From Rhizophagus irregularis (taxonomy: Eukaryota), in the NCBI RefSeq assembly GCF_026210795.1, contig NC_089435.1, positions 5,270,001 through 5,334,000 of the forward strand: a stretch of DNA of 64,000 nt. Direction: 5' to 3'. A program made the translations under genes and the position numbers. The notes below the pieces were generated by a model. The model was not told the DNA's origin. It did no database searches and saw nothing but the letters and a program-made list of their open reading frames with translations. This document shows, piece by piece, positions 19,895 to 58,958 of the stretch. Numbering within the stretch: position 1 is the stretch's first letter; every line of letters starts with the position of its first letter.

Positions 19895-20120
19895 AGGACC
19901 CTGCTTACTTATAATAAAGGTCACCGTAGAAAATTAGCTCTTTACTAATAGTTTTTACCTTACTTTTTTCTTAAATTCTATTGGTTAATTAGCTAAAAAG
20001 GAAAAAAATCATAATAATGTAACATAAAATTTCCTTTTATAGTAGGATTTGCAAAGAATTTTATATATGATTTTTACCTTAAGCCTGAAGGTGACTTATC
20101 TTATAAGTAAGCAGTGTCCT
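19895..20120. mobile_element. ~230-bp MITE (AGGACCCTGCTTACTTATA family), inverted copy
   Basis: TIRs; TSD TATTGGAC/TATTAGAC. Confidence 0.85.
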
Positions 20121-22690: not shown

Positions 22691-22782
22691 ATCAAATATA
22701 CCTAAAAATTGGATTCCTGATATTTAAACGATTAGTCACTAATATGTAACACTGAATCAATCTTACACATATCGGGTACCGA

Positions 22783-24016: not shown

Positions 24017-24018
24017 TA

Positions 24019-24032
24019 TGGTGCATGCTCGC
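24019..24032 (+). promoter_or_regulatory. Putative primer-binding site
   Basis: TGGTGCATGCTCGC begins 2 nt after the LTR. TGG is complementary to tRNA CCA; the primer tRNA is not established (Gly-like acceptor possible). Confidence 0.6.
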
Positions 24033-29694: not shown

Positions 29695-29729
29695 AGAGTC
29701 TTGGCTCTGAAGAGAGAGAGACGGAAAAG

Positions 29730-31817
29730 ATGCTTAAACCTAGTGAAAAATTTATGCAGAAATTAAGTATAGGGAAAGTGGAAGAACCAATTTGGGAAAA
29801 TATGGTAAAATTATTATTAAAATACCAAGATATTTTGGAATATGACAAAGAAATAGAAGGAAGAACAAAAGCGGCGCAACATGAGATAAAAATAAAAGAT
29901 GGGGTAGAACCAATAAAGCAAAGAAGATACAAAGAAACAGATGAGAAGGCAAAATTTATAAGTGAAGAAGTAGATAAATTATTAAGACAAGGAAGGATAA
30001 GAAAATCAAAGAGTCCGTGGAGTTCACCGGTTACATTAGCAGGAAAGAAAACAGGAAAATATAGATTTTGTATTGATTACAGAAAGTTAAACAAGATAAC
30101 TATAATGGATAGTTTTCCTTTACCAAGGATGGATGAATTGTTAGACAAATATAGAAAAGCAAAATGGTTTTCAAGTATAGATTTAGCGGCGGGATTTAAT
30201 CAAGTAGAAATGAAAGAAGAAGACAAAGAAAAAACAGCATTTGTATGTTCAAAGGGATTATTTGAATATAATGTAATGCCGTTCGGTTTAACGAACGCAC
30301 CAGCAACATTTCAGAGATTAATGGATGAAATATTAGAAGAATACATAAACGATTTTGTGGTAGTATATATCGATGATATTATGATATATTCAGAAAATTT
30401 AAAAGACCATATGGAACATGTGGAAAAAGTATTAAAGAAGCTACAGGAGAATAATTTGATAATAAAATTAAAGAAATGTAGATTTTTGGAAAGAAATATA
30501 GAATTTTTAGGACATATAGTAGGAAATGATGGATTAAGGCCAGACGATAAAAAGATAGAAAAGATAAAAGAAATGAAGGCACCAACAACAGTGAAAGAAG
30601 TTAGATCATTTTTAGGACTTTGCTCATATTACAGAAAATTTGTGAAGAATTTTTCAAAGATAGCAAGACCAATAAGTGATTTGAGAAAGAAGGGAATACC
30701 TTTTATTTGGGGAAGAGAACAACAAGAAGCGTTTGAAAAATTGAAAGAAAAGTTAATACAATATCCAATATTGCGACATCCAGATTGGAAGAAAGAATTT
30801 TTATTAATAACAGATGCATCAGGAAAAGGATTAGGCGCAGTATTGAGTCAAAAAGATGAAAAAGGAAAAGAAGTAGTAATAGCATATGCAAGTAGAAGTT
30901 TATTACCAGCGGAAGAAAATTATCCGATAACAGAGTTGGAATGTTTAGGAATAGTTTGGGGAATCCAACATTTTCATAAATATTTAATCGATAGAAAATT
31001 TAAAGTAATAACAGATCACAGTGCATTAAAGGGATTAATGAATGCGAAGATACCAAAAGGAAGAAGAGCAAGATGGGTAATGGAATTACAGCAATATAAT
31101 TTTGAAGTAGTACACAGGTCGGGAAAAGAAAACACGAACGCTGACGCATTAAGTAGATTATTAAAGATAGTGGAGGAACAACCAGAAATAGTAATAATCG
31201 ACGGAGTAGACGGATTGGGAAAAACAAGTATAGTACAAAATTTAATTGGAGAATGGGAAAAACAAGGATTAAAAGTAAGATTCAATACTTATAAAAGAAG
31301 AAGAAAAGATAAAGATGAATTTCACGAATCAAAGATGGATACAGAATGGAAATTCAGAAAAGAAGTAGTGGAACAAATAAATAGAAGAATGTTAGAATAT
31401 GATGAAGATACAGATATAATAATTTTAGACAAATCACCATATTGTGAATATTATTATCAAAAGACGAAAAGTTTTGACAGAGGGTTAATTACTCCACATG
31501 GAAATCATGAGATGGAAAAAGAAATATTTAGATTGAAAGAAACAATAGATAAATCAATAGTGATATTTTTAGAAAAAGATGGCAATGTATGTTGGGAAAA
31601 TTACATTGGAAGAGAAACAAAGAAAACGGAAAAATCATCATATCCAACATTAAAAAAGGATGAATATTTGGACATGGTTAAAATGTTTGAAGAAAATCAG
31701 AGCGTATACAAATATACCAAAAGATACAGTCGAGTAAAAGTTAAAAATGACAATAGTAGTTGGAGAAAAGTATTTAAAGAGGTGGAAAAATGGAGAATGG
31801 TTAAAGAAATTTTATGA
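29730..31817 (+). CDS. pol: Pol: reverse transcriptase, RNase H and a thymidylate/dNMP-kinase-like P-loop domain
   Basis: SPWSSP, RFCIDYRKLN, MPFGLTNAPATFQ, YIDD, TDAS, TDH and NADALSR, followed by IIDGVDGLGKTS...IILDKSPY. Confidence 0.93.
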   Translation: MLKPSEKFMQKLSIGKVEEPIWENMVKLLLKYQDILEYDKEIEGRTKAAQHEIKIKDGVEPIKQRRYKETDEKAKFISEEVDKLLRQGRIRKSKSPWSSPVTLAGKKTGKYRFCIDYRKLNKITIMDSFPLPRMDELLDKYRKAKWFSSIDLAAGFNQVEMKEEDKEKTAFVCSKGLFEYNVMPFGLTNAPATFQRLMDEILEEYINDFVVVYIDDIMIYSENLKDHMEHVEKVLKKLQENNLIIKLKKCRFLERNIEFLGHIVGNDGLRPDDKKIEKIKEMKAPTTVKEVRSFLGLCSYYRKFVKNFSKIARPISDLRKKGIPFIWGREQQEAFEKLKEKLIQYPILRHPDWKKEFLLITDASGKGLGAVLSQKDEKGKEVVIAYASRSLLPAEENYPITELECLGIVWGIQHFHKYLIDRKFKVITDHSALKGLMNAKIPKGRRARWVMELQQYNFEVVHRSGKENTNADALSRLLKIVEEQPEIVIIDGVDGLGKTSIVQNLIGEWEKQGLKVRFNTYKRRRKDKDEFHESKMDTEWKFRKEVVEQINRRMLEYDEDTDIIILDKSPYCEYYYQKTKSFDRGLITPHGNHEMEKEIFRLKETIDKSIVIFLEKDGNVCWENYIGRETKKTEKSSYPTLKKDEYLDMVKMFEENQSVYKYTKRYSRVKVKNDNSSWRKVFKEVEKWRMVKEIL

Positions 31818-31955
31818 TCGAGGGGGATTTACACCAAGAATAGTAATTAAAGGAAAAGAGGTATTCGATAAGACCCGAGTTCGATTCAATTAGAATTATT
31901 ATGAACGAGACCCGAGTTCGATTCTTTTAAAGTTATTTGTGAGGTCACAAATAGC

Positions 31956-31969
31956 GAAGAGGGGGATAA
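31956..31969 (+). promoter_or_regulatory. Polypurine tract
   Basis: GAAGAGGGGGATAA abuts the 3' LTR. Confidence 0.85.
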
Positions 31970-33203
31970 TGTAAACGGCCGAATATCAAGCACGAAAAGA
32001 AGATAAAATTCAACCGCCAAATGTAATTATTAAGTATTAAGAACGAACAAATTAATCGTGGATTGGCGTAGATGGATAAATAATTAGCCGAAAAGGATAA
32101 ACATTTAAGAAGAGTAATGATCTGCATGACGTAATATTTATTGAATGATTGACAAAGAACCAATAGGATAAATAGAGTCGATCATTTGCGGCTTAGCGAT
32201 CTTTACAAGAACGATAAGAAAGAATAATTATAAGCCACGAAAGATAGATTATAAGCAAAATATATAAAGTGGATTAAAAGAACATATAAAATAATGTCGG
32301 AAAGATTAAAGAACACAAAATAATATAAAAGATAATATGAAAAGATGGCATAAAGATGGAATATAAAAGATAACATATTAAAAAGAACATATATAAAAGA
32401 TAACACAGCCACAAAAGATGAATTATATCTTTACGACATAATATTTGAAAGATTATTTTAAAGAGAAGATAGCACAGCCATAAAAGATGGGTTATAAATT
32501 ATTTCTTTACGATGTAATATTCGGATAATAGAAAAGATAATATATAAAATAATATATAAGATAGCATATTAAAAGATAGCGTATTTAAAATATAGATAGT
32601 ATATTAGAAAGATAGTTCAAAGATAATATGTAAAGAACATGAAAGATAGTATATAGATAGAATAGAAAGTAGCATAAAAATTGTATATATAGAGAACGGA
32701 ATTCAAAGTAATTCCATAGTTCGCATCCACAGAACTCAATAAAATATAAGTTTCGTTTAATTATTTGTTAATGAAGTTTAATATTAATTAAAGGTAATAG
32801 GTTCGCCCTAAACTTTAATTAATGTTTGATTAATTAATTTTAATTAATGAAAATTTAAGAAGAATTAAATATATGTTTTGAAAAGTGATAATTCGTAGCG
32901 AGAGCTATCGAAGTTTGAAATTAAAGGTAAAAGTGGATATAATTTGAGGAAAGAGACGTATATTTTATTTTATATCGTTTAATGTTTTGTATTACTAACA
33001 CTATTTATTTTATGAACCAAGAATGTTGTTGTACGTTGTTCGCTGATGTTGTTGTTTGTTAATTATGTTTTGATCACGTGCTTGTTCGTTTAATTGTTCG
33101 TTTGTTCGTTTGTTTGTTCGTTCATTCGTTCGTTCGACCATGAGAATGCCCGTTCGATGTGGCAACCTTGTAAATTGATGACAGGGGGAATTGGGGGATC
33201 TCA
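31970..33203 (+). repeat. 3' LTR (1234 bp)
   Basis: Direct repeat of 22783-24016. Confidence 0.97.
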
Positions 33204-35319
33204 CCGATATGCAAAATATTTATTTATTGTATTTGTATTATATAATCCAAAGAGGTATATTAAAATTATTACTAAAAAAGTATTTTAATATTAAAGATAA
33301 TCGTTTATTCATATAAAACCCCTTATTTTCAATTTTTTTTTATTTTTTCTAATATCACGAATAACTGACAAAAATATTAAAAATATACATACCGTATTTT
33401 GTGGGCTACAGTACCCCCCCTATACACAGTATTTTACACAAATTTTTTTTTGGATTTTTTAAATACCCAGATTATACATGTAGCTGAAACCTCTATGAAG
33501 CTAAACAGGGTTTCAGACTTTCAGTAATTTAATTATAATAAATTATAATAAATTATTAAAAACTATCCAAAAATCCATCTAAAACTCCAAAGACTTTATA
33601 TTATAGTTTCGGCTGGATGTAGAGATTAATTTTTATCATTTTTTAACTTAATTTTGATTTAAAGATGTGGCTAAAAATCACGTGAAAAAGTTTTGGCTAC
33701 AAGTATAACCCAGATATTTCGCACAGAGACATTCGATTTTTAACCTCTAAAATTTATAAAATATCTGAGGTACAACACTAGAAAAAAAAATATATACACT
33801 GTATAATATCCGGGTATTTATTATCAACTTTATTTATTATATATGATATTACAATATGCAATACATTGTTAAAATCCTTTATATTATTTCCTAAATTCTC
33901 TCAATATAGAACATTATTTTTCATCAGAAGTTAGTTCTTGATTTTGATTTCCATCTTCTCCACTACTATCATTACCACCATTATTTTCTTTACTCTTACC
34001 TTTATCTGTTTCAATTTCCCACTCATTTTCATAATCATTTTCTTCGGTATTCATTTTCTTCATCATCTGAATTATTTATATCTACCTCATCATCATCCTT
34101 CGGCATGTCCAGTAACTTATCATAATCAAATAAATCATTATCTTCTGAATCATCAGTATTTGTTGAAACTTCACAACATTTGAAAAACCTTCTAATAAGA
34201 TCTTCATCAACATCATCCTATGATTCCTTGACTCATGTTGCAACTGTTGAATAGGAAGGTCTTTTAATCCTTCTGGCTGGAATAAGAGCATGAATGGTAG
34301 AAGACATCCAATTATTATATCATTTTTTAACCTGCAAATTATAAATAAATGTTAACAAAAATCAAAGAATTTATAAATAAAATATGCTAAATTGCTAACA
34401 ATAAAAAATTTTAAAGAATTATATACAATTTTTACCTTAGCATCAGCAAGTTTGAAAAGTGTTGATTCACACCAGTATACGCGTTGATCAACACCAGCTA
34501 GTTGTTCAACGCGATTAATAATATTAATCAACACCCGTATACTGGAGTATATTAACGCTTAATGTTAATATACGCGTCATTCAACTCTAATGTGTAGTTC
34601 AACACATTATACATTGTTGTTTAACGCACTGTATATTAACACATACTATACTATTTTAATTAAATTAAATTATATTTATTTTTATTCACCTTAGGAATCG
34701 AACCAAATACCTCAACTTACACTATTAATTATTTCACGATCTAACCACTGCACTATTTAATTTAAGTATATATTTATATATATTAAACTTAATATTTAAA
34801 AAAAAAATTATTTCGGCAATTGCGTAATGTACTCTTATCATGTGTATCACGTGATACTAGACTTAATAATTACCGCTGCGGCAGTGCTGCGGCTGCGGTA
34901 TAGCAAAAAAAAAAATTAAGCTTTTTTTGGCAAAGCTTAATTTTTTTTGCTTTTTCCTCTTCGTTCTCCCCTTCCCTTTTGTTTTCCCATTACTCTTTCG
35001 TTCTTCCCTTCCTTCTCCCCTTCCTTTCATTTTCTCATTATCCTTTCGCTCTCCCCTTCATCCCTATAAAAAGTTCTATCCGTTATTTCTGTAAAAACCC
35101 GTAAAAATGAGCCTTTCACAGATCCATTCACGGAAAATGATAAATTCCGTAATAAAAGGTTATTAATTCTGGACCTTTTACGGAAGAAAGATGAAATATA
35201 AGAAATGGATTAACTTTCCCTTTCGTTCTCTCCTTCCCTTTTATTTTCCCATTACCCTTTCATCCCATTTTCCCCTTTACTTTCCCCTTTACTTTCCCCT
35301 TTCACTTTCCATTTCACAT

Positions 35320-36045
35320 TCTTTAACGAAACGTCAAAAAACGTTTCGAAAATAATTTTTTTCATATTGTTTTAATCGGAACGTTGGCTAACATTCTGAT
35401 TTTTTTTTTTATTTCATTTTTTAGCGAAACGTTAAAAAATGTTTCGAAATACATTTTTATTTCATATTTTTTTAATCGGAACGTTGGCTAACGTTCCGAT
35501 TTTTTTTGTTTTTTCATTCTTTAACAAAACGTTTTTTAACGTTTCGAAGCATTTCTTTTTTTAACTTTTTTAATCGGAACGTTAGCTAACGTTCCGATTT
35601 TTTATTTTATTTCATTTTTTTATTTACAAAACGTTTTTTAACGTTTTGAAACTTTTTTTTTAATTTTTTTTTAATCAGAACGTTAGCTAACGTTCCAATT
35701 TTTTTTATATTTTATTTTTTTACGAAACATTTTTTAACGTTTCATAATATGATTTTTTTTTCATATTTTTTTAATCGGAACGTTAGCTAACGTTCTGATT
35801 TTTTTATATTTTATTTTTTTACAAAACGTTTTTTAATGTTTTGTAATAATATTTTTTTTTTTCACATTTTTTTAATCGGAACGTTAGCTAACGTTCCAAT
35901 TTTTTTTATATTTTATTTTTTTACGAAACGTTTTTTAACGTTTCGTAATAATATTTTTTTTCACATTTTTTTAATCGGAACGTTAGCTATAACGTTCTGA
36001 TTTTTTTTCATTTCATTTTTTAACAAAACGTCAAAAAACGTTCGT
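35320..36045. repeat. Tandem ~120-bp repeats with palindromes CGGAACGTTAGCTAACGTTCCG and GAAACGTT..AACGTTTC
   Basis: About six units, flanked by TTCCC/TTTCG low-complexity tracts. Confidence 0.85.
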
Positions 36046-36456
36046 TCTCCCTTTTTGTTATTTTCCCCTTTCCCTTTTCATTCCGTTCTTCCTATTCCCC
36101 TTCGTTTTCCCCTTTCCCTTTACGAATATTGAGAAAAAATCATTTTTTAAAAGTGTTTCTGTATTATTTTTTTCTTGAAAAAAGTAAATTTATTAAGTAA
36201 AATAAATTATAGAAAACTTTTTAAATATACATAAAAAATCTCTTTATTTGAGATTTTGATATAAAAAAATAATTTAGCAATTAAAACGCGTCTTTCCCTT
36301 TCGTTATCCCTTCCCCTTTTCATTTTTCCCATTTTTATTTCGTTTCTTCCTTTTCCCTTTCGTTCTCCCTTCCCCTTTCGTTATCTTCTTTCCCTTTTCG
36401 TTATCCCCTTCCATTTTCGTTTTCCCTTTCCCTTTCGTACTCCCGTTTCCCAAATG

Positions 36457-38000
36457 GTAAGTTTCAAAGCGTTCGCTTCAAAACTTTTTTTTTAATTTTA
36501 TTTTTTATTGTTTATGAGGGAACGTTTCTAACGTTTCCTTTGGTTTTTTTTTGTAGGACCTTCGTTATTGTACTTCGGAGCGAAATGGTGAGTTTCGAAG
36601 CGTTTCACTTTGAAACTTTTTTTTTTAAAGTTTTTTTTTAATTAGGAAACATTACTGACGTTTCCTGTATTTTTTTGTAGGTCTTTTGGCTCGTTTTCAG
36701 TTCGAAATATTGAAAACGGTAAGTTTTGAAGCGTTCGCTTCAAAACTCTTAAAATTATTTTTTATCTTTTAGGAAACATTACTAATGTTTCTATATTTTT
36801 TTTGTAGGTTTTTGGCGTGTTCGATTCAGTATATTGAAAACAGTAAGTTTTTGACACGTCGAAACTTTAAAAAAAAAAAATATTTTTTTAAATTACTTTT
36901 TAGGAAACATTTCTAACGTTTTGATACTTTTTTTTTATAGGCCTTTCAGTGTGTTTGACCTCAGAAAACGAAATGGTAAGTTTCGAAGCGTTCGCTTCGA
37001 AACTTTTATTATTTTTTTTAATTTCTTTTAGGAAACGTTTCTAACGTTTCCTTTCTTTTTTTTGTGTAGGGATTTTGGTGACTTTGGAAAACTTGGAAAC
37101 GAAAGTTAAGTTTTTAAAGCTTTCGTTATAAAATGTTTTTTTTTTACTTTTTTATAAGGAACGTTTCTAACATTTCCTTTATTTTTTTTTGTAGGTCTTT
37201 CGTTATTTTTGGCTTTGGAAAACGGGAAATGAAAGGGTAAGTTTTAGCTTCGAAACTTTTTTAAAAATTTTTTTTTTAATTCTTTTTTTGTAAGGAAACG
37301 TTTCTAACGTTTCCTTTCCTTTCTTTTTGTGTAGGATTTACGGTATTCGACTGAAATGGTAAGTTTCACTTTGAAACTTATTATTTTTTTTTATTACTTT
37401 TAGAAAACGTTTACTAACGTTTCCTTTCTTTTTGTAGGTTCGGAAATATCTGGTATTGGATACGGGTCCTGAAACGGTAAGTTTCGTTTGCAATGAAACT
37501 TCCGTTTTTTTGTTTTTTTTCTTTAAAAAACGTTCTAACTTAACGTTTATCTTTTTTTTGTAGGTTCAAGAATATGGTTTTGGATATGGGTCATGAAACG
37601 GTAAGTTTCGTTCGCTACGAAACTTCTGTTGTTCTTTTTTTATTTCTTTTTAATTAGGAAATGTTTACTGACATTTCCTTTTTCTTTTATTTAGGTTTCG
37701 GGAATTCATATCTTGGTTAGTTGTTGTAGATTCAGCCGTTTCGAATTCGGAAACTTAGATTTGGTAAGTTTTGCGAAATATTTTTTTTTGTTTTTTTTTT
37801 AATATAAACGCTTGCTAATGTCTCTTGATTATTTTTTGTAGGTTTAAGCTCGTCTTCAACTGGAAACTTGAAATGGTAAGTTTCGTCGCGAAACTATATA
37901 TATATGTTTTTAATAGAAACGTTTCTAACGTTTCCTTTTTCTTTTTTGTAGATAGGCTTGGATCAGATTGTGTAAGTTTCATTAACGAAACTTTTATTTG
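36457..38000 (+). repeat. Tandem intron/micro-exon array (~12 units, ~130-bp period)
   Basis: Repeated GTAAGTTTCGAAGCGTTCGCTTCGAAAC...AGGAAACGTTTCTAACGTTTCCT...TTTTGTAG separated by variable exons, e.g. 36557-36587, 36681-36718, 36808-36842, 36941-36975. Confidence 0.85.
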
Positions 38001-40014
38001 TGTTTTTTTTATTTGAAATCCCACCTTGTTATTGTTGTGTCACCAGAGGCGCTTTGTCAACGGAAATTTAGTACGTTGATCGCTTAAAAATCTGCGGCAA
38101 TCCAATTATAACAAGAGGAATTAAATTTTTTAGATAATGTATTTGTATTATTTGTATTTTACAATAAATTTATAATATTTACAATTAAATTTTATATGTT
38201 AAATAATATACAATAAATTATGTTAATAAATTACTATAAAGTTAACTATTGTACAAACCATTGCTATACGCGTTTTTAATATCAATATACGCGTTTTTAT
38301 ACATTGTATACACGTTTTTAAACTATCGTTGTTTTACTACGTGTAGTTTTACATTTAAATTGGTGTTGTTTTACGCGTTTTTAAACATTTTTAAGTAGCG
38401 TTGATTGACAAAGGGTTTGTTTCCCTACGTTTTTTGGCGTTGAACAACACATGGCATTTTTTAACAATTTATACGCCTGTTTAAAACTTGCTGATGAGCT
38501 TTAAAGCTTTTGTTAATTGCAATATTTAATGGTTGCAATTTAAATGTGCAACCACCTGGAATTATGGCAATATTTGTATTTTTTTCTACCAACCGATTTT
38601 TAACAGAACTTATAATATGACTACGAAAAGAATCCAAAACCAGTAAGGAATGTGAATTACTAAAAGGGTTTCTTGAGATCCATACAGTTTCAATCCACCA
38701 TAGCATTTCCTTTTCATTCATCCATCTTTTTTCATTAGCTTGTATATGAATACCATATGGAAAATTTTCTTTTGGCACATTTTTCAATTTAAAAATGCAA
38801 ACTGCTAGAAGCTTACTGCCATCAGCTATACATACAAGCAGGGTTGGGAAATGTACTGTACTGAGTTTTTTTAGTATAAGTACATTTTTTTATATAAATT
38901 ACAGAGGTATTTTTAATCATATATACCCTGATTTTAAGTGGTCCAGTGATTAGATTTCAATAAAATTAAGCTTATTAGATTCGTCTCAATGAGAGGAATT
39001 TAATAGTATTTATTTTATCATAAATAAATAAATATTGACAGAGTTAGCATTTGAAGTAACTTTATTAAATATATGGTATTTAAAATTTTAAGTACAATGT
39101 ACTAATTGTACTGTACTGTACTGTACTGTACTGTACTAAAATTTTACCTTGTACGTCATATTTTAAGCTGCTGTCATGCAAGTCTACTTTATAAAAGATG
39201 ACATTCATGGCGCGTAGTATGAATGCTGACTGTTTTTGTGCCCTTATGGTCTATAGTGAAATTACTTGGCAAATCAAACCATAGTAGTGTCTCATCTATA
39301 TTACCTATATATTTTAATGGATAGTCATGCTGAATCCTTCTATATAAAATATAATTCAAAAAAACGTTTTGTTTTTCAATTAAATCTAATGGTAATTGTT
39401 ATGCTATAGTTATTTTACGACATTTACTAAGATTATATTTTCCTAAAAAACCACTTAGCCATTTATTTGAAAATTTAAATGAAGTGATATTTGGATTATT
39501 TGCTAAAAAATCCTGATTTCTAGACAACGTAATAGCTTTTTTGGTAATCATTTTTTGAGTAACAGGATTTTGATTCGTTTTTTTTTCACAAATCCACGTA
39601 AATAAATCATCTTCTAAATCTGGATATTTGGCAGATTTACCCGAAAGAAGCTTAAGAAAGGACCCCAGATATCTAATATAAAGGTCATAATAAACTTTTG
39701 GCCAAAAATACCTCTTTTTGCTGAAACTCGAAAAATCGTTTTTTGTAAATATCTCAGCATCCAGTGATTCAATTTTAATGAAATATTTTTTATTTTGTAG
39801 CCCTCATTTAGCTCTACAATTTAAAAAAAAAGTTCATTAAATTTGGACCACTGGATGCCGAGATATTTACAAAAAACGATTTTTTGAACTCCTGAAAAAT
39901 GGGCCAATCTGCCGAAAGTGTGACTTGAACTCTTTCTTGTAGATCCTTGGTCAAAAATTTCACGAAAGAAATTTTTACTCTTCGTATTAACACATCTCTT
40001 ATTTTACTACTAAA

Positions 40015-42170
40015 ATGCCTCCCAAAGGTAACAAAAAAGCTGGCAATAACCCTAACAGGGGACCTGCCAAGTGACAAGACAAACGAAACAAAAATAAAGA
40101 CTCTGGCTCTGACGTTTCGAACTCAGATAATGAACAAACAAACAATAAAAACAACCCTTCCAAACGTACCCGTACGCTTCCAGATAATCCTATGGAAGAA
40201 GACTACGTCGCCGACTCAGCGGCTGACGCTGGAGGTAGCAATACTACTCCTTCTCAACAAAATAATGCTGACAATTTTACGTCTCCTCCTCCCAAAGATA
40301 CTACTGCGCCTTCTGCGCCTGGTTCTGTCGTGTCTGGTACCGACGTGTCCATGCATGCTCCAAAAGACAAAGAAACTTCCCCCTTAGACGCGTCTCCTAA
40401 TAAGGATATTATGGATACCAATAATACTTCTCCTCTTCCCCTTGACACGCCCACTATTTCCATTCTTAGGTATGATTATCAGGCTGCTGCGGCGCCTAAT
40501 ACTTCCCCTGAATTTGTCAAAAAGTATCCTACCAATCGGGCTATGATTGACGCTGTCAATAATCTCCTTTTGAAAACTTATCACTCTTACACTGGCCGTG
40601 CTCGTATGTCTGGTTCTGGTGACCTCAAAAGATTGGTCATTCATTTTAATTCAACTACTGAACGTGATGCCTGCCTTTCTCTCCAACATGATGATCTTGC
40701 CGATCTCAAATTCTTTCTGTATGACCCTCAGCAACTCCGAACTGATGAAGATCTCTGGGCTATTCAAGTTACTGACATCCCGTTTTTCATCAAAAAGGAT
40801 GATATTATTGCTCTTTTTAAAAAATATGGTAACATACAATCCTGTCGCCTCCATACACGTGCCAACACTAAAGTCCAGCAAGCTCGTATCATTTATGATG
40901 ATGCTTCCTCCATCCAACATTTCATAAATAAACAGTGGGCGATTTATTGTTATTCCACTTGTTTACGCATTACGCCTTGCTCTCTCTCCCTCGATCAAAA
41001 GAAATCACGGCGTGAATTCATCGCTGTTTTATCTCAGCTCCCTTCTAACACAAAAGATGTGCATTTAGCGCCCTTAGTACGATCAATTGGCGCTATGGCC
41101 GTCAATATCCCCCTATCTCTTAATTTTTACAAACCTAAATGATGGGCTTACATCACCTTTAAATCATAACAAATGATGGACACCGCAATGGAACAATCAA
41201 TCGTTCTGCAAGGTCATAGGCTCCAATGGGAACTCCCGGAGAATACAAATAAGCTTTGCCATAGATGTGGCAAACTTGGCTGCGCTCTTACTGCATGCCC
41301 ATTGAACAATTCTCGAGGTTGCTCACGCACCCGTAACCCTGTTGCACACTTAAAAGAACGTTTCAAAATTGGACAATCGAATAACTCTAACTCTTCTGCC
41401 AATCAAAGTAGACATCGTTCCCGTTCTCAATCCAAAGATCGTTCTAATTCTCGACAACATAATCATTTAGCCAGTCATACTGGACAGAACAATAATAATA
41501 CCAATAATATTTCCTCGCCCAATTTTTCTACTTCCGATAATTCTACCCAATCTGCACAACGACCTCGATTTAATGAGCGTAAAGGCAAAGACCGTTCAGT
41601 TTCCTTTTCCACTTCCCAACGTAATAGTACCTCTACTCCCAACTCATCTGGCCATAAACCTCCTTTGGTGGATCTTAATTGTCCCCAAATTCAGGAGATT
41701 CTCTCGGTGCTTAGAAGCCTTCAAGATGATATGGCTAGTGTACATGCTAGAATTTATGCTCTTGAATTAGCTGATCAGAGAATGTCTCAGCTCGAACTTC
41801 GTGTTTTTGGACATATGCAAGATGATGTTCTCCCACCTGATTCCAATGATTCCTCACATATGCTTGTTGACAACCACCAACGCACCCCCCTTATATAACA
41901 CAATCCAACTCGCCCACTTCGTACAAGCCTTTTTCTGGCCCGGTTCTCCCTCTCCCATCGGTTCCTGTCTTCCGTTCCACCATTTCCTTCTTTCCCATCC
42001 CCGAAACTGCTGATGAAGTTACCATTAATAAAGAACGTGCTGAAATTTATTCCTTTCAACGATCTTTAGATAACAAATTCGATCACCTATCCAGCTCTAT
42101 TGAAAGATTTATTAGCTCCATTTCTGGTGGCTCTTCCTCGGACTTAGTCAATAAGACTTCGTCTGATTAA
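40015..42170 (+). pseudogene. LINE ORF1 (RRM-like domains, degenerate Zn knuckle, coiled coil)
   Basis: ATG at 40015; IQVTDIPFF..FKKYGNI, CHRCGKLG; internal stops and a frameshift. Confidence 0.8.
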
Positions 42171-42217: not shown

Positions 42218-45200
42218 ATGATGAATGATAATATAGATTATGATACCTTTGTGCGAAATCCCCCCAACCCCGTTGATTTTAGTGATATTTTTAATGATCT
42301 TTTATCTGATACTTTATTTTCTTCCTCTTCTTCTACTTCCCCCATTCCCAATTCTTTTAACATTTCTTCCTTTAATGTTAATGGTCTTAAAACTCCTGGT
42401 CAAGGTTCCTTTAAAATGGACCAAATTTCTTCTTTCTTTTTACAAAATCATATTTCCTTTGGCAGTATTGTTGATACTCATCTATCGCCTAAACAAATGA
42501 AATTTTTATCTAAACGAGTTTGTGATTATACCATATGGGCCGATCCTTGGAATCTAATTTTTTTACACAAAAATAATTTTATTAAAGCAAATATAAATTA
42601 TCATTTATATAAGAATAATAAATTTATACTAGATAATGCAAAAAAAACTAATTAATTATATAATTTTTAATTTTTTTTTAATATAAGATATCATTAAAAT
42701 TTAAAAGATCAAATATAACTCTCATGACAAAATCATTGATAATTCTTCGTAGAAATAAGCTATACAAATAAATTTACATTCATTTGAAAGAGAAAATCGA
42801 GATCTATCTAATGAATCTAAAATCAAGTGAATTGAATCACTAGTTGTTCAGTAATCACGTTCAGTATATTTATTGAATTTTATCTAAATTTGATCATTAA
42901 TTACTTCACATGTAGTGATTCAATTTGAATGATCTTTGCTCCCTAAGGTGATGCCAACTTTTATCTTTAAAATAAATTTAAAATAATTCGTTTAATATAT
43001 GTAGATGTTTAGGAATCATCAATTATATTATTAATATAAAATTTTATAAGTTTGATAAAATCTGATATAAAAAAATTTATTAAATACCTGTAGATGCAAG
43101 CTACACGAATGAAATTATATTCATTTGAAAGAGAAAATTGAGGTCTATCTAATAAGCCTAAAATCGAATGAATTGAATCACTGGATTGTGAATAATTACG
43201 TCTAATATATTTATTTTTAATTTTTAAATTTGATTTGACTTTGATCGTTAATTACGCCTCATCCAGTGATCCAATTTTCCTGATCTTTGATTCTTACGAT
43301 AGAGCAAATTCTCAGCTTTCAAATGAATGTAAAATGATGACGTTAGCATATCTCCAGGAATAATAATGCACGATTTTGTCACCTGCATAAAGTCCGATCT
43401 GAAAATTTTATTTCTTACCAAAAAATGCTTTCATAAGAGAATCCCAAATTCTTTTACTTTATTTAAAAGATTTTATTTGCCATTTAAGGATTTTAGTAGA
43501 ATAAATCTAATAAAATAATTTTAAAAGATAAAAAACAAATATATAATTAGTTATTTTGAAAAAAAAAGAATATCTTATTATTCATTTTACAACTATTTTA
43601 CATCATAATTATTTTTTATTTGCATGTATTTTATATAAAGAAAAAACAATAAATTAAAGCTAAAAATTATGAAAAAATATGTCTTATCTATGTATATAAA
43701 ATATTAAGTTTTTTCTTTTACTTACCACTTAAAAATAACTGCTATATTTGCTTATAAACTTTTTTGTCATATTTAATAAAAGTGAATAGAAAAATGATGG
43801 AAAAGTGATGGGCAGTGATGGGGAAAAAGAAGTGGTTATTACCGTTATTTTTGAATATTGATTAAAAAAATTTTTTTTATTTTTTATTAAATCTGAGTTA
43901 CGTAAATATGTAACACATATTTAATTTAGATTTGTGTAATGTTAATCTTACTAAAATATTAAATTTTTATAAAAATCTTAATTTAGACTAATTCCAAAAA
44001 TCGGCACATATGCTTCTTTTCATTCTGATTTGGATTCCACCAAACACGGCCGGTCTTCTGGTGGTGTTTCTTTATTCATACATAACTCGTTAGCCACTCA
44101 TGTTCAATTTTATTAATCCCATTCCTCCTGAATTCTTTCTGTAGACTTGTTTTTTAAAGGCAATGTTAAATTGCGTATATTTGTCGTCTATATCCCACCT
44201 ACAAATGATCTAGTTCTTCGTTACGAAGTCATTGATCAATTAATTTCTCTAATTTCCCAAACTTCTTCACAAAACTTTCACCATGCTATTTGCGGTGATT
44301 TCAATATGAATTTAGAGAAATATTACTCTATTTTTTTGCATCAACCTCAGGTTGCTGCTAAACGAATTCACAAATTGTTTCACTATTTGCTTTCTCATAA
44401 TTATGAGGACTGCATTCCCTTTAATTTATCCGGTACCTTAGGTACTTATCATCATTTGGATACTATTACCCGTATTGACTTTGTTTGGTCTTGTCCACTT
44501 CTTCGCCAATATTTGTTAACAGCTTCTATTTTTGATGCTCATGATTTACACATTTCTGACCATAACCTTATTATTACATATTTTGATGTTTCATTATTAT
44601 CAGATGCTATTAAATCTGCACGAGCTCGTCAAATTGGTCGTAATACTCGACATGTTTTTAAATATGATTCTATTTCTACTGAACAGTGGACTGTTTTTGC
44701 TGATGATTTGGATAAATTATGTCCAATTGATCCACTTATTTTTGACGCTTGGCCTCTCAATCAGAAGTGTGAATATCTCCATTCTAGGATTATCAAAGCT
44801 GCTAATTCCGCCTTACCTTCAATTACTGTGGGCAATACTTATGTTCCAAAAAAGCCTAAAGACTTGGAAAGTTTATGCCAATCTTATAGATTTTTGTCTA
44901 AAGTGGCTAAGACTATCCGTTTTCTTCACAAGACCCCTACATTATATTCTATTCATCATGAAACCAAGTGGTCTTCATATTATATACGTCTTAATAATAT
45001 TTTATCCTTTTATAAACAAACCTTTGTTACGCCTATTATTTTTCCTCTCTTTCTTCGAGATGCAAGAATTGATGATTTTGCCAATTTACTTCAAATTCTA
45101 GAAAATATGACTTTGCTTTTGCAAAGTCTTCTTTTGCTTAAAGAAAAAGAATTTCAAGCCTTTTCTATCCAGGCTAAAATTGATGCTCGGAATGATAACT

Positions 45201-50432: not shown

Positions 50433-51289
50433 AGTTGATGTTATTAACGGGGAGTTAGTCTTCTAAAATAAGGAGACGGAGTTGAGGTGTATGTTTGGTG
50501 ATTTTTACTCAGGTTTTTCTCATTGCACTTTGAGTTTTCCTGAGGTTTATGTTTTTATTTTATGCTTTTTGTTTTTCTTGGTCACTTTTTTCAGTATAAC
50601 CTTATTTTCTTTAGGATGGGGGGATACTGGAAAATTTGATCGTCATAGTGGCTTGGTGTTACTAATTTTAAAATCGATGATCACTCGAATGATAAGGGGG
50701 TGACAGGTTGGATACCGCAGTTTTTGTAGTATGCCGATCATGGTGGTCACATGTTGGACTATCATTAGATTGACTTATCTAGATAGATTTTAGGCCAAAG
50801 GATTGTTCTCAATGAGGTGGGTGTCTTCTGTTAAGGATTGTTCGAAATAAGATGGGTGTCCATATTAGGATTGCACGACACTAAAAAGTTCCCTGAGGTC
50901 TTTTTGAAATAGGTTTGTTATTCATAGTACATAGTCAAATATGGGAAATTGAATTTTGTGTATTTTTGATAGCGCTAATGGTATTTGGCAATGGGATTCT
51001 TTAATCTTTAAATGTAGTGGGGATCTCGCTGGATACGTATAACATAGTCGATTCTACCAGGTTTGAGATATAATTTGGAGGGTAGCCATAGTTATTTATA
51101 TAGAGAGGATGTTGGATTTATAATCTTAGCATTTCTTTTTATGTATTTCTGGAAGATTATTGTTCTTGTATTAGATTAGTTATGCACTTTGTTGCAGTTT
51201 TTTTTTAAATACCTGGTATTCTCTAAAGTAACTTGTGGCAAAAATTAATAAAATTTAAGCGCAGCTTTGTTAAACCAAAAGTGTGACTT

Positions 51290-51962
51290 AACTCTTTCTT
51301 GTAGATCCTTGGTCAAAAATTTCGCAGAAGAAATTTTTATCTCTTCGTACTAATACAACCTTATATTCTACTACCATAACTAATAAAAGTGCTAATAAAG
51401 CTGGCAGCAACCCGAAAAGGGCCCTGCTAAGCGCAAAGATAATCGAAACAATAACAATAAAGACTCTGGCTCTGATATTTCAAACTCTGATATCGAACAA
51501 ATAAACAATAAAAACAACCCTCCAAACGTACCGTACGCTCTCTAAAAATTCCATGGAAGAAGACTTCGTCGCCGACTCAGCGGCTGATGCTGGAAAAAGC
51601 AATACTACTCCTCCTCAATAAAATAATACTGATAATTTTTCATCTCCTCCTCCCAAAGATACTGCTGCGCCTGCTGCGCCTGGTTCTGTCACATCTGGTA
51701 CTGACGCGTCCATGCATATTCCAAAGGACAAAAAAACTTCCCCCTAGACGCGTCTCCTAATAAGGATATTATAGATACCAATGATACCATTCTTAGGCGT
51801 GATTATCAGACTGCTGCAGCGCCTAATGCTTCTCCTGAATTTGTTAAAAAATATCCTACCAATCAAGGTATGATTGATGCTGTCAACAACCTCCTTTTAG
51901 AAACTTGCCATTCATATACTGGCTGTGCCCGCATCTCTAGTTCAGGTGACTCTAAAAGACTG
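51290..51962 (+). mobile_element. Second copy of the LINE: 5' UTR and start of ORF1, truncated
   Basis: Colinear with 39927-40632; cut where CATCAGAAAA begins at 51963. Confidence 0.9.
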
Positions 51963-52278
51963 CATCAGAAAATTTTTTGGGAAGCAGATCTGCGCAGATT
52001 TTCAGAAATTATATCTACGCAGATCTTATACCCTAGTGCAAAACATTAAAGGAAAAATCCAATAAAAAACTGCGCAGATTTTATAAATAAACAAAGTTCT
52101 GCGCAGATTTTTAAATAAAAAACCTTCGAAATACCTCAGCAATTTTTTTCAGTAAAAATCTGCATCACAATAATACAAATTAATTTATTGCATTAATTAC
52201 TAATTTATTTATATAATCAAAATTACTTTTTTATTATATATTAACAAGTTTACAAATACAATTGAAATCTATTACTAG

Positions 52279-52522
52279 TAAGGTTGCTTGTCTAAACCTC
52301 TTCAAAATCCTACGATTAGTTTCGTCAAAATTTTACTATAGATTTATTATAGTTTCGGCAGAGTTTCGGCAGTTTCGGCATTTATAATAAGTTTCAGCAG
52401 TTTCGCCTTTCTCCAAAGTTTTGCCAGTTTTTTAATATAACTTTAATATAGTTTCAGCAGAATTTCGCTTTTCGTCAAAACACCATCTTGTCTAAACCCC
52501 TAGGTTTCAGCAAGCAACTTTA
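52279..52522. mobile_element. hAT MITE of the TAAGGTTGCTTG family
   Basis: TIRs with a perfect 8-bp TSD ATTACTAG; GTTTCGGCA repeats. Confidence 0.9.
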
Positions 52523-52639
52523 ATTACTAGTCATTGCTATTCATCATCTCTTTACTGTATATTTACATGTTGTTAATGGTTTGGAACATTGTTCCAGTTG
52601 GTTTGATTCTAACAAACAATTAGCAAAATGGAAAAAAAA

Positions 52640-55600
52640 TCTATACAAAAATAAAGGAAAAACGAACATTAGTATAAAGTTCGTAAAATTCGTTAAAAAA
52701 AAGTAAAAGGATTTCAAAGTAATTACCTTAAATATTACTTTGAAATTTTGTTCAGAAACCCGTCTAAAGTCATAGGACCTAAAAAAATTGAACGTTAATT
52801 AACGTTCATCAAATAATTTATTAAAAAAATAAACTTTCAACAGTTTTACCTTCAAAAATGAGTCTGGAGCTATACTTCAGTGTTCTGGACGTACAAAATA
52901 TAAAAATGAACGTTAGATAAATTAAAAAAATATAAAAAAATTAAAGAATTTCAAAGTTTACCTTTGAAATTTACGTCTGAAAAACCATAGACCTATAAAA
53001 CCTATAAAAAAAATACAAATGAAACGTTAATCAATGTTTTACTAAATAAAATTAAAAACTTTCGAAGATTATACTTTCGAAATGATGTCCAGAGTACTTT
53101 CGGTGTTCTGGACTTACAAAAAATAAGAACGACATTCGTTAAATAAAATAAAAAAAATAAAAAAAATTTTAAATTTTGAAGTTTTAACCTTCGAAATTCC
53201 ATTATGTCTGGAAAGCCAATAACCTATAAAAAGAGAAAATTGAAACGTTAGCCAACGTTTCATTAAATAAAAAAAAACTAATAGAATTTTAAAGTTTTAC
53301 TTTTGAAATTCCATCCAGACAAAAACAGGAGAGCTGAAACCTTAAAAAAAAGAGAAAGACAAAACATTAATAACATTTTGCTAAAATAAAACAAAAAACA
53401 GAATTTCAAAGTTTACCTTTGAAATTCTGTCCAAGAGGCATCCAGAAAGCCGAAAATCTACAAAAAAAAGAAAACTGAAACGTTAATAATGTTTCGTTTA
53501 AATAAAATAAAAATAAATATTAGTTTCGTAACAAAAAGTTCATTACAAAACTTACCATGTTAAAATCCAGACGAGCTGAAACCCTAAAAAAAAAGAATAA
53601 AAGAACATTAGAAAAATGTTCTTTAACCTTTATAAAATTAAAAAATATATATATATAATTTCGCAATAAGATGTTGCGAAACTTATCATTTTCATTTTGG
53701 GAATCTTTGGAGTACCAAAACTACAAAAAAGAATAAAGAACGTTAGAAACGTTCTTTTATAAAATAAAAAAATATAAGTTTTGTAATGAAAAATTCATTA
53801 CGAAACTTACCCTCTCTTAATATCCAAGAAAAAAAAATTTGAAAGTTAGTCTTTCGGCTTTCTTTACCTAAAAAAAAAAGAAATACGAACGTTAGTTAAC
53901 ATTCGTCAATAAATTAATTAAAAAAAAATAATTTCAAAGGTTTTACTTTCAAATGAGTCTGGAACATACTTTCGGCGTTCTGAACCTAAAAAAAATAAAA
54001 TAACGAAATGTTAGTAAAATGTTCGTTAAAGAAAATCAAAAATAAAAAACTTCAAAGTGCTATTACCTTCGAAGTTCTTCTAAGTTCTCCAAATGGAAGT
54101 TCAGAACCTAAAAATAATAAAAAATGAACGTTAGTATAATGCTCGTTAAAGAAAAATAAAACAAAAAGAAACTTTGAAGTGTTATACCTTTGAAGTTCTT
54201 TCAAATGGAGCCAGAATCTAAAAAATAAAAGAAAAATGAATGTTAATAGAATATTTGTTAAAGAAAAATAAAAAAAAAGAATTTTGAAGTGTTATTATCT
54301 TTGAAGTTCTTTCAAATGGAGCTGAAACCTAAAAAATAAAAGAATACGAACGTTAGTAGAATGTTCGTTAAAGAAAAAAATCACAAAAAAATATATATAA
54401 AGAATTTGAAGGTTTACCTTCAAATTCTTTCATCCAGTAGCCAGAGAACCAAAACCTTACAAAAAAAATACCTGAAACATTAGTAAACATTTCGTAAATT
54501 AAAAGTAACAAAAAAAAATAAGAATTTTGAAGGTTTACCTTCGAAATCCTTCTAAATGTGAACAGGAACCTAAAAAAATAAATGAAAGCTGAACATTAAT
54601 AAAAAAAATACAAAAAAAACACGTTTCAAAAATATACTTTCCATTCTATCAATCCAAAGCGCAAAGTTAATGCCAACACCTACAAAAGAAAGAAAAAAAA
54701 ATTAAATAAAATTTTTTAAATAAAAAAGTTTCAAAGCCTTCCGCTTCAAAACTTGCCAATCCAAAAACCCAGGAATCGAAAGCTGATACCTACAAAAGAA
54801 AGAATAAAAATTGTTAAAATTTTTTGACGATTTTTTTATAAAAAAAGTTTTGAAACTTAATGCATAAAACCTTCGATCCAAGAACTGATGCTAATACCTA
54901 CAAAAGAAAGAAAGAAAGAAAAATTTAATAAAATTTCTCAAGAAAAAATATTTTAAAAAAAAGTTTCGAAGCAAATGCTTCGAAACTTACCAATCTAAAG
55001 CTTGGGACCGATACTGATACCTATAAAAGAATAAAGAAAATTAAATAAAATTACATTTAAAAAAAGTTTCGAAACTTCACTTTAAAACTTACCGATTAAA
55101 AGTCTAAAGATCTGCCGATACTTACAAAGAAAGAAAAAAAAATTAATATAATTTCTTAAAAAAAAAAAATTAAAAAAAGTAGTTTCAAAACTCTCACTTC
55201 GAAACTTACTTATCAAGAATTAAGAACCGAAGCCGATGCCTACCTACAAAAAGATGAAAAAAAAATTTAGTTGAAGTTTTTTTAATTTTTTAAAGAAAGT
55301 TTCAAAGCGAAAAAAAGCTTCGAAACTTACCAATTCAAACCTGAGGACTGATGTTGACACCTACAAAAATGAACATTTAGTAACGTTTCGTTAAAAGTAA
55401 AGATACAAAAAATATAAAAAAAAATTCGAAGGGTTTTACCTTCGAATTTTAGTCTAGAGCCGTTTTTCGGTATCTGAGATATAAAAATAATAAAAAATGA
55501 ACGTTAGCGATGTTCGTTAAACAAAAATATAATAAAAAAATTTCAAAGGTAAAGATTTTACCTTTGAAATAAGAGTCTGGAGCTGTTCTTCGGCATCCAG

Positions 55601-55990
55601 GACCTAAAAGTTTGATAAAACGAACGTTAGTGACGTTCGTTAAATAAAAAATAAAAAATTATTATTTTTTTTTAAAATAAATTAAAAAAAAAATTATTAT
55701 TATTTTTAAAAAAAAAATAAATTAAGATTCAGAGGTAAGCATACCTCCGAATTCCAACTAAAATCATCGATAGATTCTATCTAGAACTTATATAATATAA
55801 AAAAAAATAATTTTTTTTTTTAAAAAATAAATTAAGATTCGGAGGTAAGCATACCTCTGAATTCCAATATCTTTGATAGGTTCCATCTAGAACTTATATA
55901 ATATAATAAAAAATTATTATTTTTTTTAAAAAAATAAATTAAAATTCAGAAATTAATATACCTTCGAATTTTAGGAATCTATATAATATA
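52640..55990 (-). repeat. Long tandem intron/micro-exon array (roughly 25-28 units, ~120-bp period)
   Basis: Plus strand repeats (C)TTACC-[variable]-CCTA(C/T/A)AAAA-...AACGTTAG...; the reverse complement gives GTAA donors, CTAAC branch sites and T-rich TAG acceptors. Confidence 0.82.
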
Positions 55991-56115
55991 AAAAAAAATA
56001 ATTTTTTTTTTAAAAAATAAATTAAGATTCGGAGATAAGCATACCTCAGTAGTATGAAAATCCCAGTTCTGGCTCAGCACCACCATATAATCTAATTACT
56101 ACCACTTTCATATAA

Positions 56116-57100
56116 CACTGGTCAAAATTAATACTATCGGGTACCTATCGGGTACCTGATATGTGTACAATATATGTGATATATGTGTATGATATTTAAC
56201 AATGCTACACATATCAGGTATCCGATATGTGTAGTAGAAATGTAGAAAAACGGTGACACATCATGTACATATCACATATACATCTTACACATATCGGGTA
56301 GTTAAATATCGGTCACATATCATAGACTTATTGGGTATCCGATATATTATGATATATATCATATAGATATCATACAGATATCATACAGATATCAGACGGA
56401 TAGATATAGGATAATGATTTTGTATTAATACTAGTAGATTTATAATTTAATTCAGGCAAAAAAATTATAAAATGCAATCATAATTTATATATTTTTTTAA
56501 TTTTAATTCAAAACTTTATTACAATTTAAATTTATTTACACTTTTTAATTAAAAAAAAACAATTATACTAATTATACTTGAATACTTGAATAAATATATA
56601 TAATATATAACTTCTACTAAAAGTAGCATAAAAATAAAATCACTTGTTTGCTTATACCTGTTTGATTATTTAAAAGAAGCATTAATGATAAATATATTAG
56701 TAAGAGAAAAGAGAATGTTATTAAAAAATATTAGTATAGATATATAAATATAGAAAATATTAGTAGAAACATTAGCAGAAAGAAAAAGTTAGTAGAATAA
56801 AAAATGTTAGTAGAAAGAGAACGTATATCAGTAGTAATATAATATTAATAGAAAATATTAAATAGTAAAAATGTTAATATAGTAGAAAAAAATAATAAAA
56901 AATATATTAGTAGGAGTTGATCATCCTATCTCAGTAGTTGGTTACTGAGACCCTCATTAAGCCTGAGTATGGTGAGGTCGCAGGTTCGATTCCCATAATC
57001 ATGGAAATAAAAAGAATTTTACTGCGGACGCTACTACTAATAGCGTGAAAAAGTATAATTTAAATTAATTTGAAATACGCGTTATTATAAAAAATTTTCT
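56116..57100. mobile_element. Left part of a CACTGGTCAAA-terminus element
   Basis: CACTGGTCAAAA at 56116 followed by TATCGGGTACC repeats, as at 340-568 and 22690-22782; right boundary uncertain. Confidence 0.5.
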
Positions 57101-58958
57101 TATATTCACTTTGAGAAGAGAAGAGAAAATTTCTTTAAAAACAAATAAACAAACTACAAATTAAAAAATTGTAAATAACACACGCAAAATCAATCATGCA
57201 ATTAAAACACTTATTGTTGATTTTCGTCTTTACTATTGTTTTAGCGAGTAAATAATCACCTTAAAAAAAATTTTCTTTTTTACTAAATGAATTCTTAATA
57301 ATAATTTGATTCATTATATTGACACAGATGCAGCACCATTTGATCCTAACAATAAGATGGCCTCAGATGTAGATTGCATATCAACAGACTTTGAGAATTG
57401 TTACCGTATAACAGGGGCAGTATGATACAGATTTCAGAGGTTTTGACCTTATACCCCCCACCATTGCGTGAGTTTTATTAGTTTTATTATTAGTAGATAT
57501 GTATAAAACTTATATAATAATTGGGTATTTATCATGAGTAATACTTAGGTATTATTAAAGTATTTTAAATAATAAATCGGTAGAAAATGGGAGTTCTTTT
57601 TTGTAGGGTACTGTGCATGGGGGGGGTTACTGTGGCCCGCAAAATACGGTATTTCGTCAAACACTACTGATCTACTGCATTTTGGTAAAGCATTTTAATA
57701 AAGAAGCTCGTTATCTATAATTGAAAATTAATTTGTAAAAACTAATACCTATTACCGATCGTGCTCGTCATGATTGTCTTTTCGGCTGTAAAATATATAA
57801 TGAAATTAAATGAACTAGAAGCATCAAAGCGCCAGATGAAAATGTGTTTACTGAATTGTGACATAAAATATCACATTCGATCAGTATGTGTGTGTGTATT
57901 GAATAGTACGAAAAAATTTTTGTGCCATACTCTTTTTATCGGCAACTGTATATATTTCGAACCTGACGCACGCAATGATAAAACAAAAAATAGATAAATA
58001 AATAAATAAAAGCGATTACACATATACATGCATGTATTATAATAAATAAATAATAAACAAATATAAATATATAATAAAAGCATTCTCATTAATTTGTTTA
58101 TTAGAATTATTAAAAAATCAATGAAATCATTTCTATTATAATCTTTTTTTATTCAATTTGAATTGACCGATTCATGATCAATACGGATACAGAGCCACAA
58201 TATTATGGTAGTAAAATATATAGTATACTAGTATTCATAATTATAAATTCAAATATATATATTATCATTAAAACATTTGATCGATATTTCAAGCAATTTG
58301 CTCATCCCATATCAATTTTAATTGAACATGGCGCAACACAGAAAAACATGGCAAAATACGCTTATACACATCCCTTACTTCTCCCTCATTTTCACATTAT
58401 TAATTTAAAATGACTTTGAAAATTTTAACACGGCGGCGCAATTATGAAAATGAAGTATAATATCAAGAGTGATCCCTGTAGGACTATTTTATTTTTTATC
58501 TTGCTAACTCCAGAATTTATACTACAAATCTTAGATACAAGTGAAAATTGGGTAATGGATGAGGTCAAAAATCTGGTGTATGAGATTATCATAGTTAGCA
58601 ATATTAACAATAAAAAAGAAATTTTTCCAAACTGTAAGAAAACAATGAATTAGTATGGTGCAGAGACTCGCATTAAAATGATCTAGATACGCATATCCCT
58701 TCCCTTGAAAGCATGTCATATACATATTTCACTTAATTGCAAAAAAATCACTGCTAATATGTTATATTACATAAAATTTTTGCTTTGGGTGCGTAATGTA
58801 AAATTAAATTTGCATATATCTTTTTATTACATTAATTATAGAGAAATAAGATAATTAAAACAAACACTATAAATGACTATATAAAATAAATCCGCATTAA
58901 TGTTTATTTATTCTTTTTCTTTTTTTTTCTTTTTTCACCACCTTTTTTTGATGCTTCC

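Follow-up and report, generated by a model that had tools for sequence, protein, structure and literature searches.

On the minus strand of the analysed stretch of DNA (the window, 64 kb in length), 29 hand-curated units follow one another from 56082 down to 52640, each composed of a micro-exon and an intron-like segment. The array as a whole (52640..56082) is frame-less, was delimited by curation and pattern scanning, and is real. Its units were very probably genuine introns that multiplied locally or segmentally as exon–intron modules, with their splice signals selected in active parent elements. With more reserve, we favour the explanation that the stretch represents a dead, transposon-borne and non-coding intron array that was once spliced, and whose hairpins would have masked its splice signals and thereby slowed its own splicing.

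Splice signals and hairpin blocks

The 29 donor positions lie between 56044 and 52726, and the last of the 29 acceptors is located at 52640 (minus strand). Donors were GT in 24 of the 29 units, GC in one and AT in three, with one further donor disrupted; 28 of 29 acceptors showed AG. A branch-like YTRAY motif was present at most 45 nt from the intron end in 24/29 units (exact CTAAC in nine) and absent from three of the four type-C units as well as from two type-B units (hairpin types are described below). Intron length ranged from 66 to 141 nt with a median of 80 nt, and internal exons measured 17–57 nt. A strict pattern of donor, branch, T-tract and YAG matched 16 units on the minus strand and none on the plus strand, compared to a mean of 0.66 and a maximum of 4 matches in 200 dinucleotide shuffles. 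The array shows the signals of spliceosomal (U2-type) introns at intron-like spacing. A first-pass annotation of this DNA had counted roughly 25–28 units that keep donor, branch and acceptor; the 29 curated units and a strict-pattern count far above the shuffles bear this out.

Ten coding-gene introns of the window, roughly picked and with some imprecise boundaries, matched the array in size, nine of them being 64–95 nt long. These control introns held two CpGs, versus 52 in the array introns, and their folding z-score fell below –2 in one of ten donor windows and in one of ten branch windows. Exon identity in the array amounted to 53% for adjacent pairs and 47% for other pairs at a shuffle baseline of 43%, and in the type-A units (n = 15), those stem and splice columns that lie outside CpGs were conserved in 12–15 of 15; the selection of units by hand via their splice signals bears on such contrasts in signal conservation. 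Since the exons are near random similarity while the splice signals are retained, the units most likely once were real introns. An origin from a 5′-UTR with ATG avoidance lacked support: the array contained 13 ATG versus 13.2 in dinucleotide shuffles, and p = 0.03 was reached only against mononucleotide shuffles.

Three unrelated hairpin designs were found, each of which overlaps the donor. In type A, the donor lies within the loop of a stem that joins exon and intron. The stem of type B begins at +3 of GTAAGT, and in type C the donor is paired inside the stem. Many units possess an additional stem whose 3′ arm holds the branch motif, and stems reach about 15 bp in some units. As the first-pass annotation had described, the three geometries occur in blocks, which follow the order C4–A2–B7–A6–B3–A7 from 5′ to 3′ (all minus strand). 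Block C (55604..56082) comprises four units with a stem across the exon–intron border and a paired donor, three of them without branch motif; its 5′-most unit has no left arm and may be truncated. This third stem type had been placed at 55730–55870, where it is indeed present, but it reaches as far as 56044 and the array is slightly longer than stated. Block A1 (55361..55603) consists of two units in which a TTCGAAG/CTTCGAA stem encloses the donor within its loop. It is followed by the seven units of block B1 (54570..55360), which carry intronic stems, one GC donor and two lost donors, the branch hairpin being mostly absent. Block A2 (53868..54569) combines donor-in-loop stems with branch-point hairpins in six units, one of which has lost its donor. 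The three units of block B2 (53458..53867) have intronic stems with differing inner sequences as well as branch hairpins, and one donor is lost; block A3 (52641..53457) contains seven units with one acceptor lost. Complementarity of the stems, proposed as a general feature, held for part of the units: the folding z-score was below –2 in only 16/29 donor windows and 6/29 branch windows, and six of 15 type-A cores were fully Watson–Crick paired.

Carrier element, neighbours and related copies

The array points toward a probable PlavakaB-type end (51963..52170), recognized by the terminus rule given in the accessible text of PMC12730594 and composed of CATCAG plus subterminal CTGCGCAGAT repeats (three exact, one imperfect). 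The CATCAG terminus at 51963, as previously annotated, is present and cuts a LINE 5′ fragment (51275..51962, plus strand, 80% like 39912–40635) exactly at this position. Two pieces lie between the array and the CATCAG end. One is a hAT-type MITE (52279..52522), a secondary insertion with TAAGGTTGCTTG-type ends and the 8-bp target duplication ATTACTAG, which is covered by many RNA reads. The other is a short tRNA-like (B-box) piece (52567..52619, plus strand) that reads leave on both sides and that probably represents a truncated SINE-like copy. With the MITE subtracted, the distance from the last acceptor to the CATCAG end is about 0.4 kb; the corresponding value for the sister array introduced below is 0.5 kb. 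Across the window, neither the B-box motif (4 versus 4.3 expected) nor the pogo-end motif (9 versus 6.9 expected) exceeded chance, and ARAGORN detected no tRNA genes.

A partner end of the array's element was not found within the 64-kb window. Likewise, no Pfam match to a Plavaka transposase was obtained in 17 stop-free frames, nor subsequently in 55 flanking frames out of 67 candidates. The absence of the transposase from the window fits a non-autonomous or broken copy; its gene may also lie beyond the window. PlavakaB elements are characterized by 5′-CATCA..TGATG-3′ ends and 2- or 3-bp target duplications, according to the text available of PMC12730594, and Plavaka elements are described as prevalent in Rhizophagus irregularis in the accessible part of PMC11075540. 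Judging from the sequence, the carrier of the array is likely a PlavakaB-type DNA transposon; we grade this membership as likely because it relies on one end only, without a transposase. The window is AT-rich and dense in coding pieces of hAT, Ty3/Gypsy, pogo and LINE elements. For a coding fragment near the array, a protein search gave 26 hits, of which one carried an organism name, a Rhizophagus irregularis protein of 49% identity; an arbuscular mycorrhizal fungus is accordingly the probable host. Smaller intron clusters occur in other transposon types of the window, and the feature may thus not be specific to Plavaka.

A complete sister element is located at 34441..38496, flanked by the terminal inverted repeats CATCAGCAAGTTT and a 2-bp target duplication (AG). 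With a length of 4.06 kb, it sits in a pogo transposase gene, parts of which were found on both sides. Its CATCA..TGATG ends and the 2-bp duplication represent the PlavakaB signature. Inside the element lie a satellite of hairpins and an intron array of type B, and Pfam recognized no gene in it. The sister array (36457..37990, plus strand) comprises 12 curated exons and 11 complete introns all ending in TAG, is frame-less as well and is oriented toward its element end. In the satellite (35317–36031), a branch-type hairpin has been amplified without splice sites. We also considered that both arrays might reside in the arms of a single pogo element (inverted pair 33389/57652); this was rejected, since the sister array turned out to have arrived with its own insertion, which interrupts the pogo gene.

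A pattern scan of metagenomes revealed two 1-kb contigs with related type-B arrays, one of which shares the upstream region of the sister array; the same kind of scan yielded no hits in viral contigs and none in prokaryote genomes. A search of sequencing runs recovered part of the stretch in 18 of 24 entries, with no RNA run among the entries listed. Together with RNA reads from related copies, the sister array and the two metagenome contigs substantiate the earlier suggestion of a family-level system.

Stem decay, covariation and RNA reads

Type-A stems had undergone changes at 23 of 30 CpGs, 22 of which led to TG or CA. Among stems decayed in both arms, five of nine were complementary, which equals the 50% chance rate. 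CpG methylation of transposons is reported for R. irregularis in the accessible text of 10.1101/2021.03.30.436303. Given the CpG decay and a complementarity that is only at chance, the apparent compensation in type A is explained by mutation bias. CpG decay mimics compensatory change, a warning for covariation readings. The inner stems of type B vary yet stay paired (AAGC/GCTT, AGGC/GCCT, CAAC/GTTG, TAAT/ATTA). Here, 76 of 80 positions were paired versus a swap mean of 63.3 (maximum 74 in 20,000 swaps), in a test that pooled both arrays with L001 and L002, used 20 of 29 hairpins (inner part of at least 10 nt) and ignores kinship. When counted as six distinct stems, 21 of 24 positions were paired versus 16.0 (p = 0.006). 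Covariation of the kind that the first-pass annotation proposed to look for appears only in the inner stems of type B. According to the accessible part of PMC8794818, stems can be created and repaired by template switching in one step and without selection; template switching could be an alternative source of the type-B covariation. Singly decayed stems showed nine G–U versus eight A–C pairs in a hand tally. As G–U pairs were not in excess over A–C, nothing ties the stems to RNA of the minus strand.

The array copy is decaying, as seen from the CpG-type decay and from the loss of four of 29 donors and one of 29 acceptors. The assumption that structure and splice signals are being maintained finds no support in this copy, in which most type-A CpGs are changed, signals are lost, and the downstream part holds both the hAT MITE and the SINE-like piece; moreover, no spliced junction was listed for the 3′ half.

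RNA evidence was obtained from reads of four runs aligned to 51900–54200, i.e. the 3′ half of the array. Two of these were polyA runs (400 and 415 reads), one was of uncertain kind (357 reads) and one was a contig set (30). Reads at least 99% alike were rare, numbering 17/400, 10/415, 20/357 and 2/30, respectively, and 68–87% of the reads ran on into unlike sequence. The scarcity of near-identical reads and the frequent transition into unlike sequence suggest that most reads come from relatives. The array copy itself may be silent or absent in the sampled RNA. The polyA runs covered the array, the third run hardly did so, and X22, labelled as non-polyA, showed almost no depth on it. Across the four runs, none of the eight joints listed for 51900–54200 was of the GT..AG type. 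Loose read ends showed an acceptor or donor beside an exon and were thus unspliced (polyA, related copies), and a 217-nt contig from a run only guessed to be RNA matched 52765–52981 exactly in unspliced form. Both mate directions were present and the libraries look unstranded, so that A-rich RNA of antisense orientation, or DNA, may be the source of the aligned reads. Since spliced RNA of diverged relatives is unalignable, the predominance of reads with retained introns is in part a product of the method. Among 40 differences listed, beyond which there were 176 more, 20 fell inside the array, 16 of them in introns; five restored a CpG, two destroyed one, and one converted TTAAC to CTAAC. Sequence of the family is present in polyA libraries with introns retained, and splicing is neither demonstrated nor excluded by these reads.

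Competing explanations and significance

In the explanation we favour, a non-coding unit in a PlavakaB-type arm would grow by duplicating modules of exon plus intron. U1 pairs with the donor in a register from –3 to +6. Folding predictions suggest that the donor stems (types A, B and C) would pair part of this region and that the branch hairpin would pair the branch A, and this overlap with the U1 site and the branch A predicts slow splicing. By analogy with the stalled spliceosomes of Cryptococcus, RNA that is spliced slowly and retains its introns could act as a signal in self-regulation, adjusting how the host silences the family through small RNAs or methylation; of the conceivable uses we find this the most plausible, yet doubtful. 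It appears unlikely that Plavaka-type elements in general carry a dedicated many-intron RNA whose splice sites are all masked by hairpins and which would act as a splicing brake setting the silencing response of the host. The part of this splicing-brake reading in which gene-less 4-kb elements would essentially be such an intron module between two ends is, to us, just as unlikely.

Neutral, functionless amplification is one alternative. A few hairpin-bearing UTR introns of a transposon would have been tandemly multiplied through slippage promoted by the hairpins, template switching would have re-paired the stems, and the splice signals would persist by descent. The occurrence of like units in blocks, the slightly closer similarity of adjacent exons (53% versus 47%), the chance-level compensation and heavy CpG decay of type A, the satellite of the sister element, whose hairpins are not accompanied by splice sites, and the small, similar clusters that other transposons in the window contain all agree with this scenario, as does the making of stems by template switching described in the accessible part of PMC8794818. 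However, drift should erode exons and signals equally, whereas the exons have diverged and the GT/AG/branch spacing stays, and three different stem designs all coincide with the donor; we therefore rate neutral amplification as a serious, if rather unlikely, alternative. A DNA-level control array, in which CpG-centred palindromes (TTCGAA, AACGTT) would be methylation-sensitive sites for an element-encoded, TnpA- or PAG3-like protein and introns would merely house them, is quite improbable in our estimation. Its appeal stems from observed/expected CpG ratios that stand at 1.57 for the array, 2.04 for its sister and 4.94 for the satellite versus 1.03 for the window as a whole, as well as from the tandem inverted repeats adjoining PAG3 in red-algal Plavaka (10.1101/2025.02.11.637652) and the motif clusters of Spm elements bound by TnpA (10.64898/2026.08.24.746577), as far as the accessible texts of both sources go. 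Yet the spacer between the outer arms varies from 3 to 17 nt and the inner sequence varies while remaining paired, a pattern more in line with a folded strand than with a fixed duplex site. Furthermore, the palindromes are in register with donor and branch, the T-tract and AG would be left unexplained, and no candidate binding protein was found in the window.

Small-RNA host genes have conserved introns and free exons, and the same pattern in the array, together with the length that some of its stems attain (up to about 15 bp), would be compatible with a host transcript of disposable exons from whose introns small hairpin RNAs are released in a mirtron- or snoRNA-host-like manner. This is very unlikely: an Rfam scan of the whole window gave no matches, no stem links both intron ends, and the stems of types A and C cross the exon–intron border, so that splicing would destroy them. 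A protein-coding micro-exon gene making variable proteins seems more remote still. The exons of schistosome MEGs are very short, frame-symmetric and coding, and the many small consecutive exons of the array resemble them, as does a stop-free run of 103 codons, the longest in the joined exons. Array exons, however, are neither frame-symmetric nor coding: exon lengths modulo 3 are distributed 10/9/9 with no shared reading frame, no open spliced frame exists, and stops occur in all three frames of the joined exons (10, 19 and 16; sister array 6, 4 and 5), which largely refutes this option. A protein search with an unspliced 69-residue frame of the array, a weak test, revealed no relative. Equally far-fetched is a CRISPR-like acquisition array with polarized addition of units, for which constant flanks and short variable inserts might speak. 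The polarity envisaged by the first-pass annotation did not materialize, as neither best-partner identity (rho = 0.09, p = 0.65) nor CpG retention (rho = 0.12, p = 0.53) followed position along the array, leaving no age gradient, and foreign spacers were missing too. Exons match units of the same array, and several find their best partner in a distant unit (4/27, 18/27, 25/18), indicating segmental duplicates and not foreign captures. Introners are homologous structured introns that exist in many copies and are dispersed in unrelated genes. The array shares homologous structured introns with them and differs in that its units are tandem, its exons related and its stems local, the latter extending across the exon border in two of the types. 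The ten roughly picked coding-gene introns of the window lack the CpG stems. A literature search for introners in Glomeromycota retrieved no paper.

Among known mobile elements, PlavakaB of the CMCT clade (Kojima 2025, PMC12730594) comes closest, sharing the CATCA..TGATG ends and 2-bp duplication that are complete in the sister, whereas a single end was found here. In contrast to PlavakaB, a transposase or accessory gene was not found with the array, and an internal non-coding intron array is not described in the accessible text of that paper, a term search of whose supplement returned no match to Rhizophagus or Glomus. An internal tandem inverted-repeat array is also known from red-algal Plavaka with PAG3 (accessible text of 10.1101/2025.02.11.637652). 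Those repeats, however, are proposed to serve a ParB-like protein as sites on the DNA, whereas full intron-like units with stems on donor and branch point are present here. In Cryptococcus neoformans, spliceosomes stalled on transposon introns signal RNAi (Dumesic et al. 2013, as summarised in the accessible part of PMC6232588). A silencing signal that arises from transposon introns with poor splicing might offer a works-like model for the array, although in Cryptococcus ordinary introns of transposon mRNAs are read by the host, while the elements studied here have a putative dedicated array of 12–29 introns. Among the papers listed by our literature searches, none appeared to describe a comparable array, and the word 'intron' is absent from the accessible text of PMC11075540 and 10.1101/2021.03.30.436303; Repbase or published TE libraries may hold consensus sequences. 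On sequence grounds, the array appears to be an undescribed variant of the internal repeat arrays known in Plavaka/CMC transposons, with a putative function.

Two-thirds of the transposons in mycorrhizal fungi are reported as unclassified in the accessible part of PMC11075540, and the array helps repeat classification in these organisms. Splicing efficiency is one proposed cue by which a host might distinguish the RNA of transposons from its own transcripts (PMC6232588, accessible text). With 12–29 short introns and three designs of donor hairpin, the arrays would provide a natural series in which manipulation of this cue by a mobile element can be tested. If only neutral amplification was at work, the array would still be a clear case of intron multiplication via tandem duplication in a frame-free transcript.

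Satellite and tRNA-like segments near the arrays

The sister element, which carries a plus-strand intron/micro-exon array, also contained a satellite with a 100-bp unit (35317–36031). This satellite was built of AACGTT hairpins resembling the branch hairpin, a stem with the branch-point motif in its 3′ arm, but lacked splice sites, and its CpG observed/expected ratio was 4.94. In L002, a metagenome contig with a related intron array, the upstream region was the same as in the sister element and this satellite was absent.

Two tRNA-like segments with an exact B-box, at 34694–34760 (−) and 56920–57000 (+), were each located upstream of one array and on the strand opposite to it. ARAGORN called no tRNA for either segment, and counts of the B-box motif showed no excess over chance. 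A further tRNA-like piece of 53 nt (52567–52619, +) exhibited high read depth. The reads covering it shared one common upstream flank and had many differing downstream flanks, as expected of a short SINE-like element.

Further intron and micro-exon clusters

A third intron/micro-exon array of about 6–7 units, each of approximately 120 nt, was observed at 10830–11632 (−). Its sequence differed from that of the other arrays and was purine-rich 3′ of the donor, and it was oriented divergently to a cluster (12183–18111) of an OTU-like gene and a gene that we take to be transposase-like; the latter yielded no Pfam match. A palindromic tandem repeat (14198–14847; unit 179 bp, 3.6 copies) has inserted into the coding region of this cluster. 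Upstream of a hAT transposase gene, a few introns bearing branch-point hairpins are grouped together with micro-exons (19700–20480, +); this small cluster harbours a MITE and possibly represents 5′-UTR introns.

Surrounding mobile elements

The Ty3/Gypsy element at 22782–33203 is very recent, its 1235-bp LTRs being 99.8% identical. Judging from motifs, RNase H in its pol frame appears to be continued by a kinase-like tail, and no integrase match was found among the frames scanned. Within the LINE, an inverted/tandem region (42725–43381) separated its two coding parts. A long palindrome (39728–39887) lay immediately 5′ of the first frame of the LINE. Finally, 24 kb of nested insertions were enclosed by a 55-bp inverted pair, 84% alike (33389–33442 and 57598–57652), which looks like pogo-type ends.
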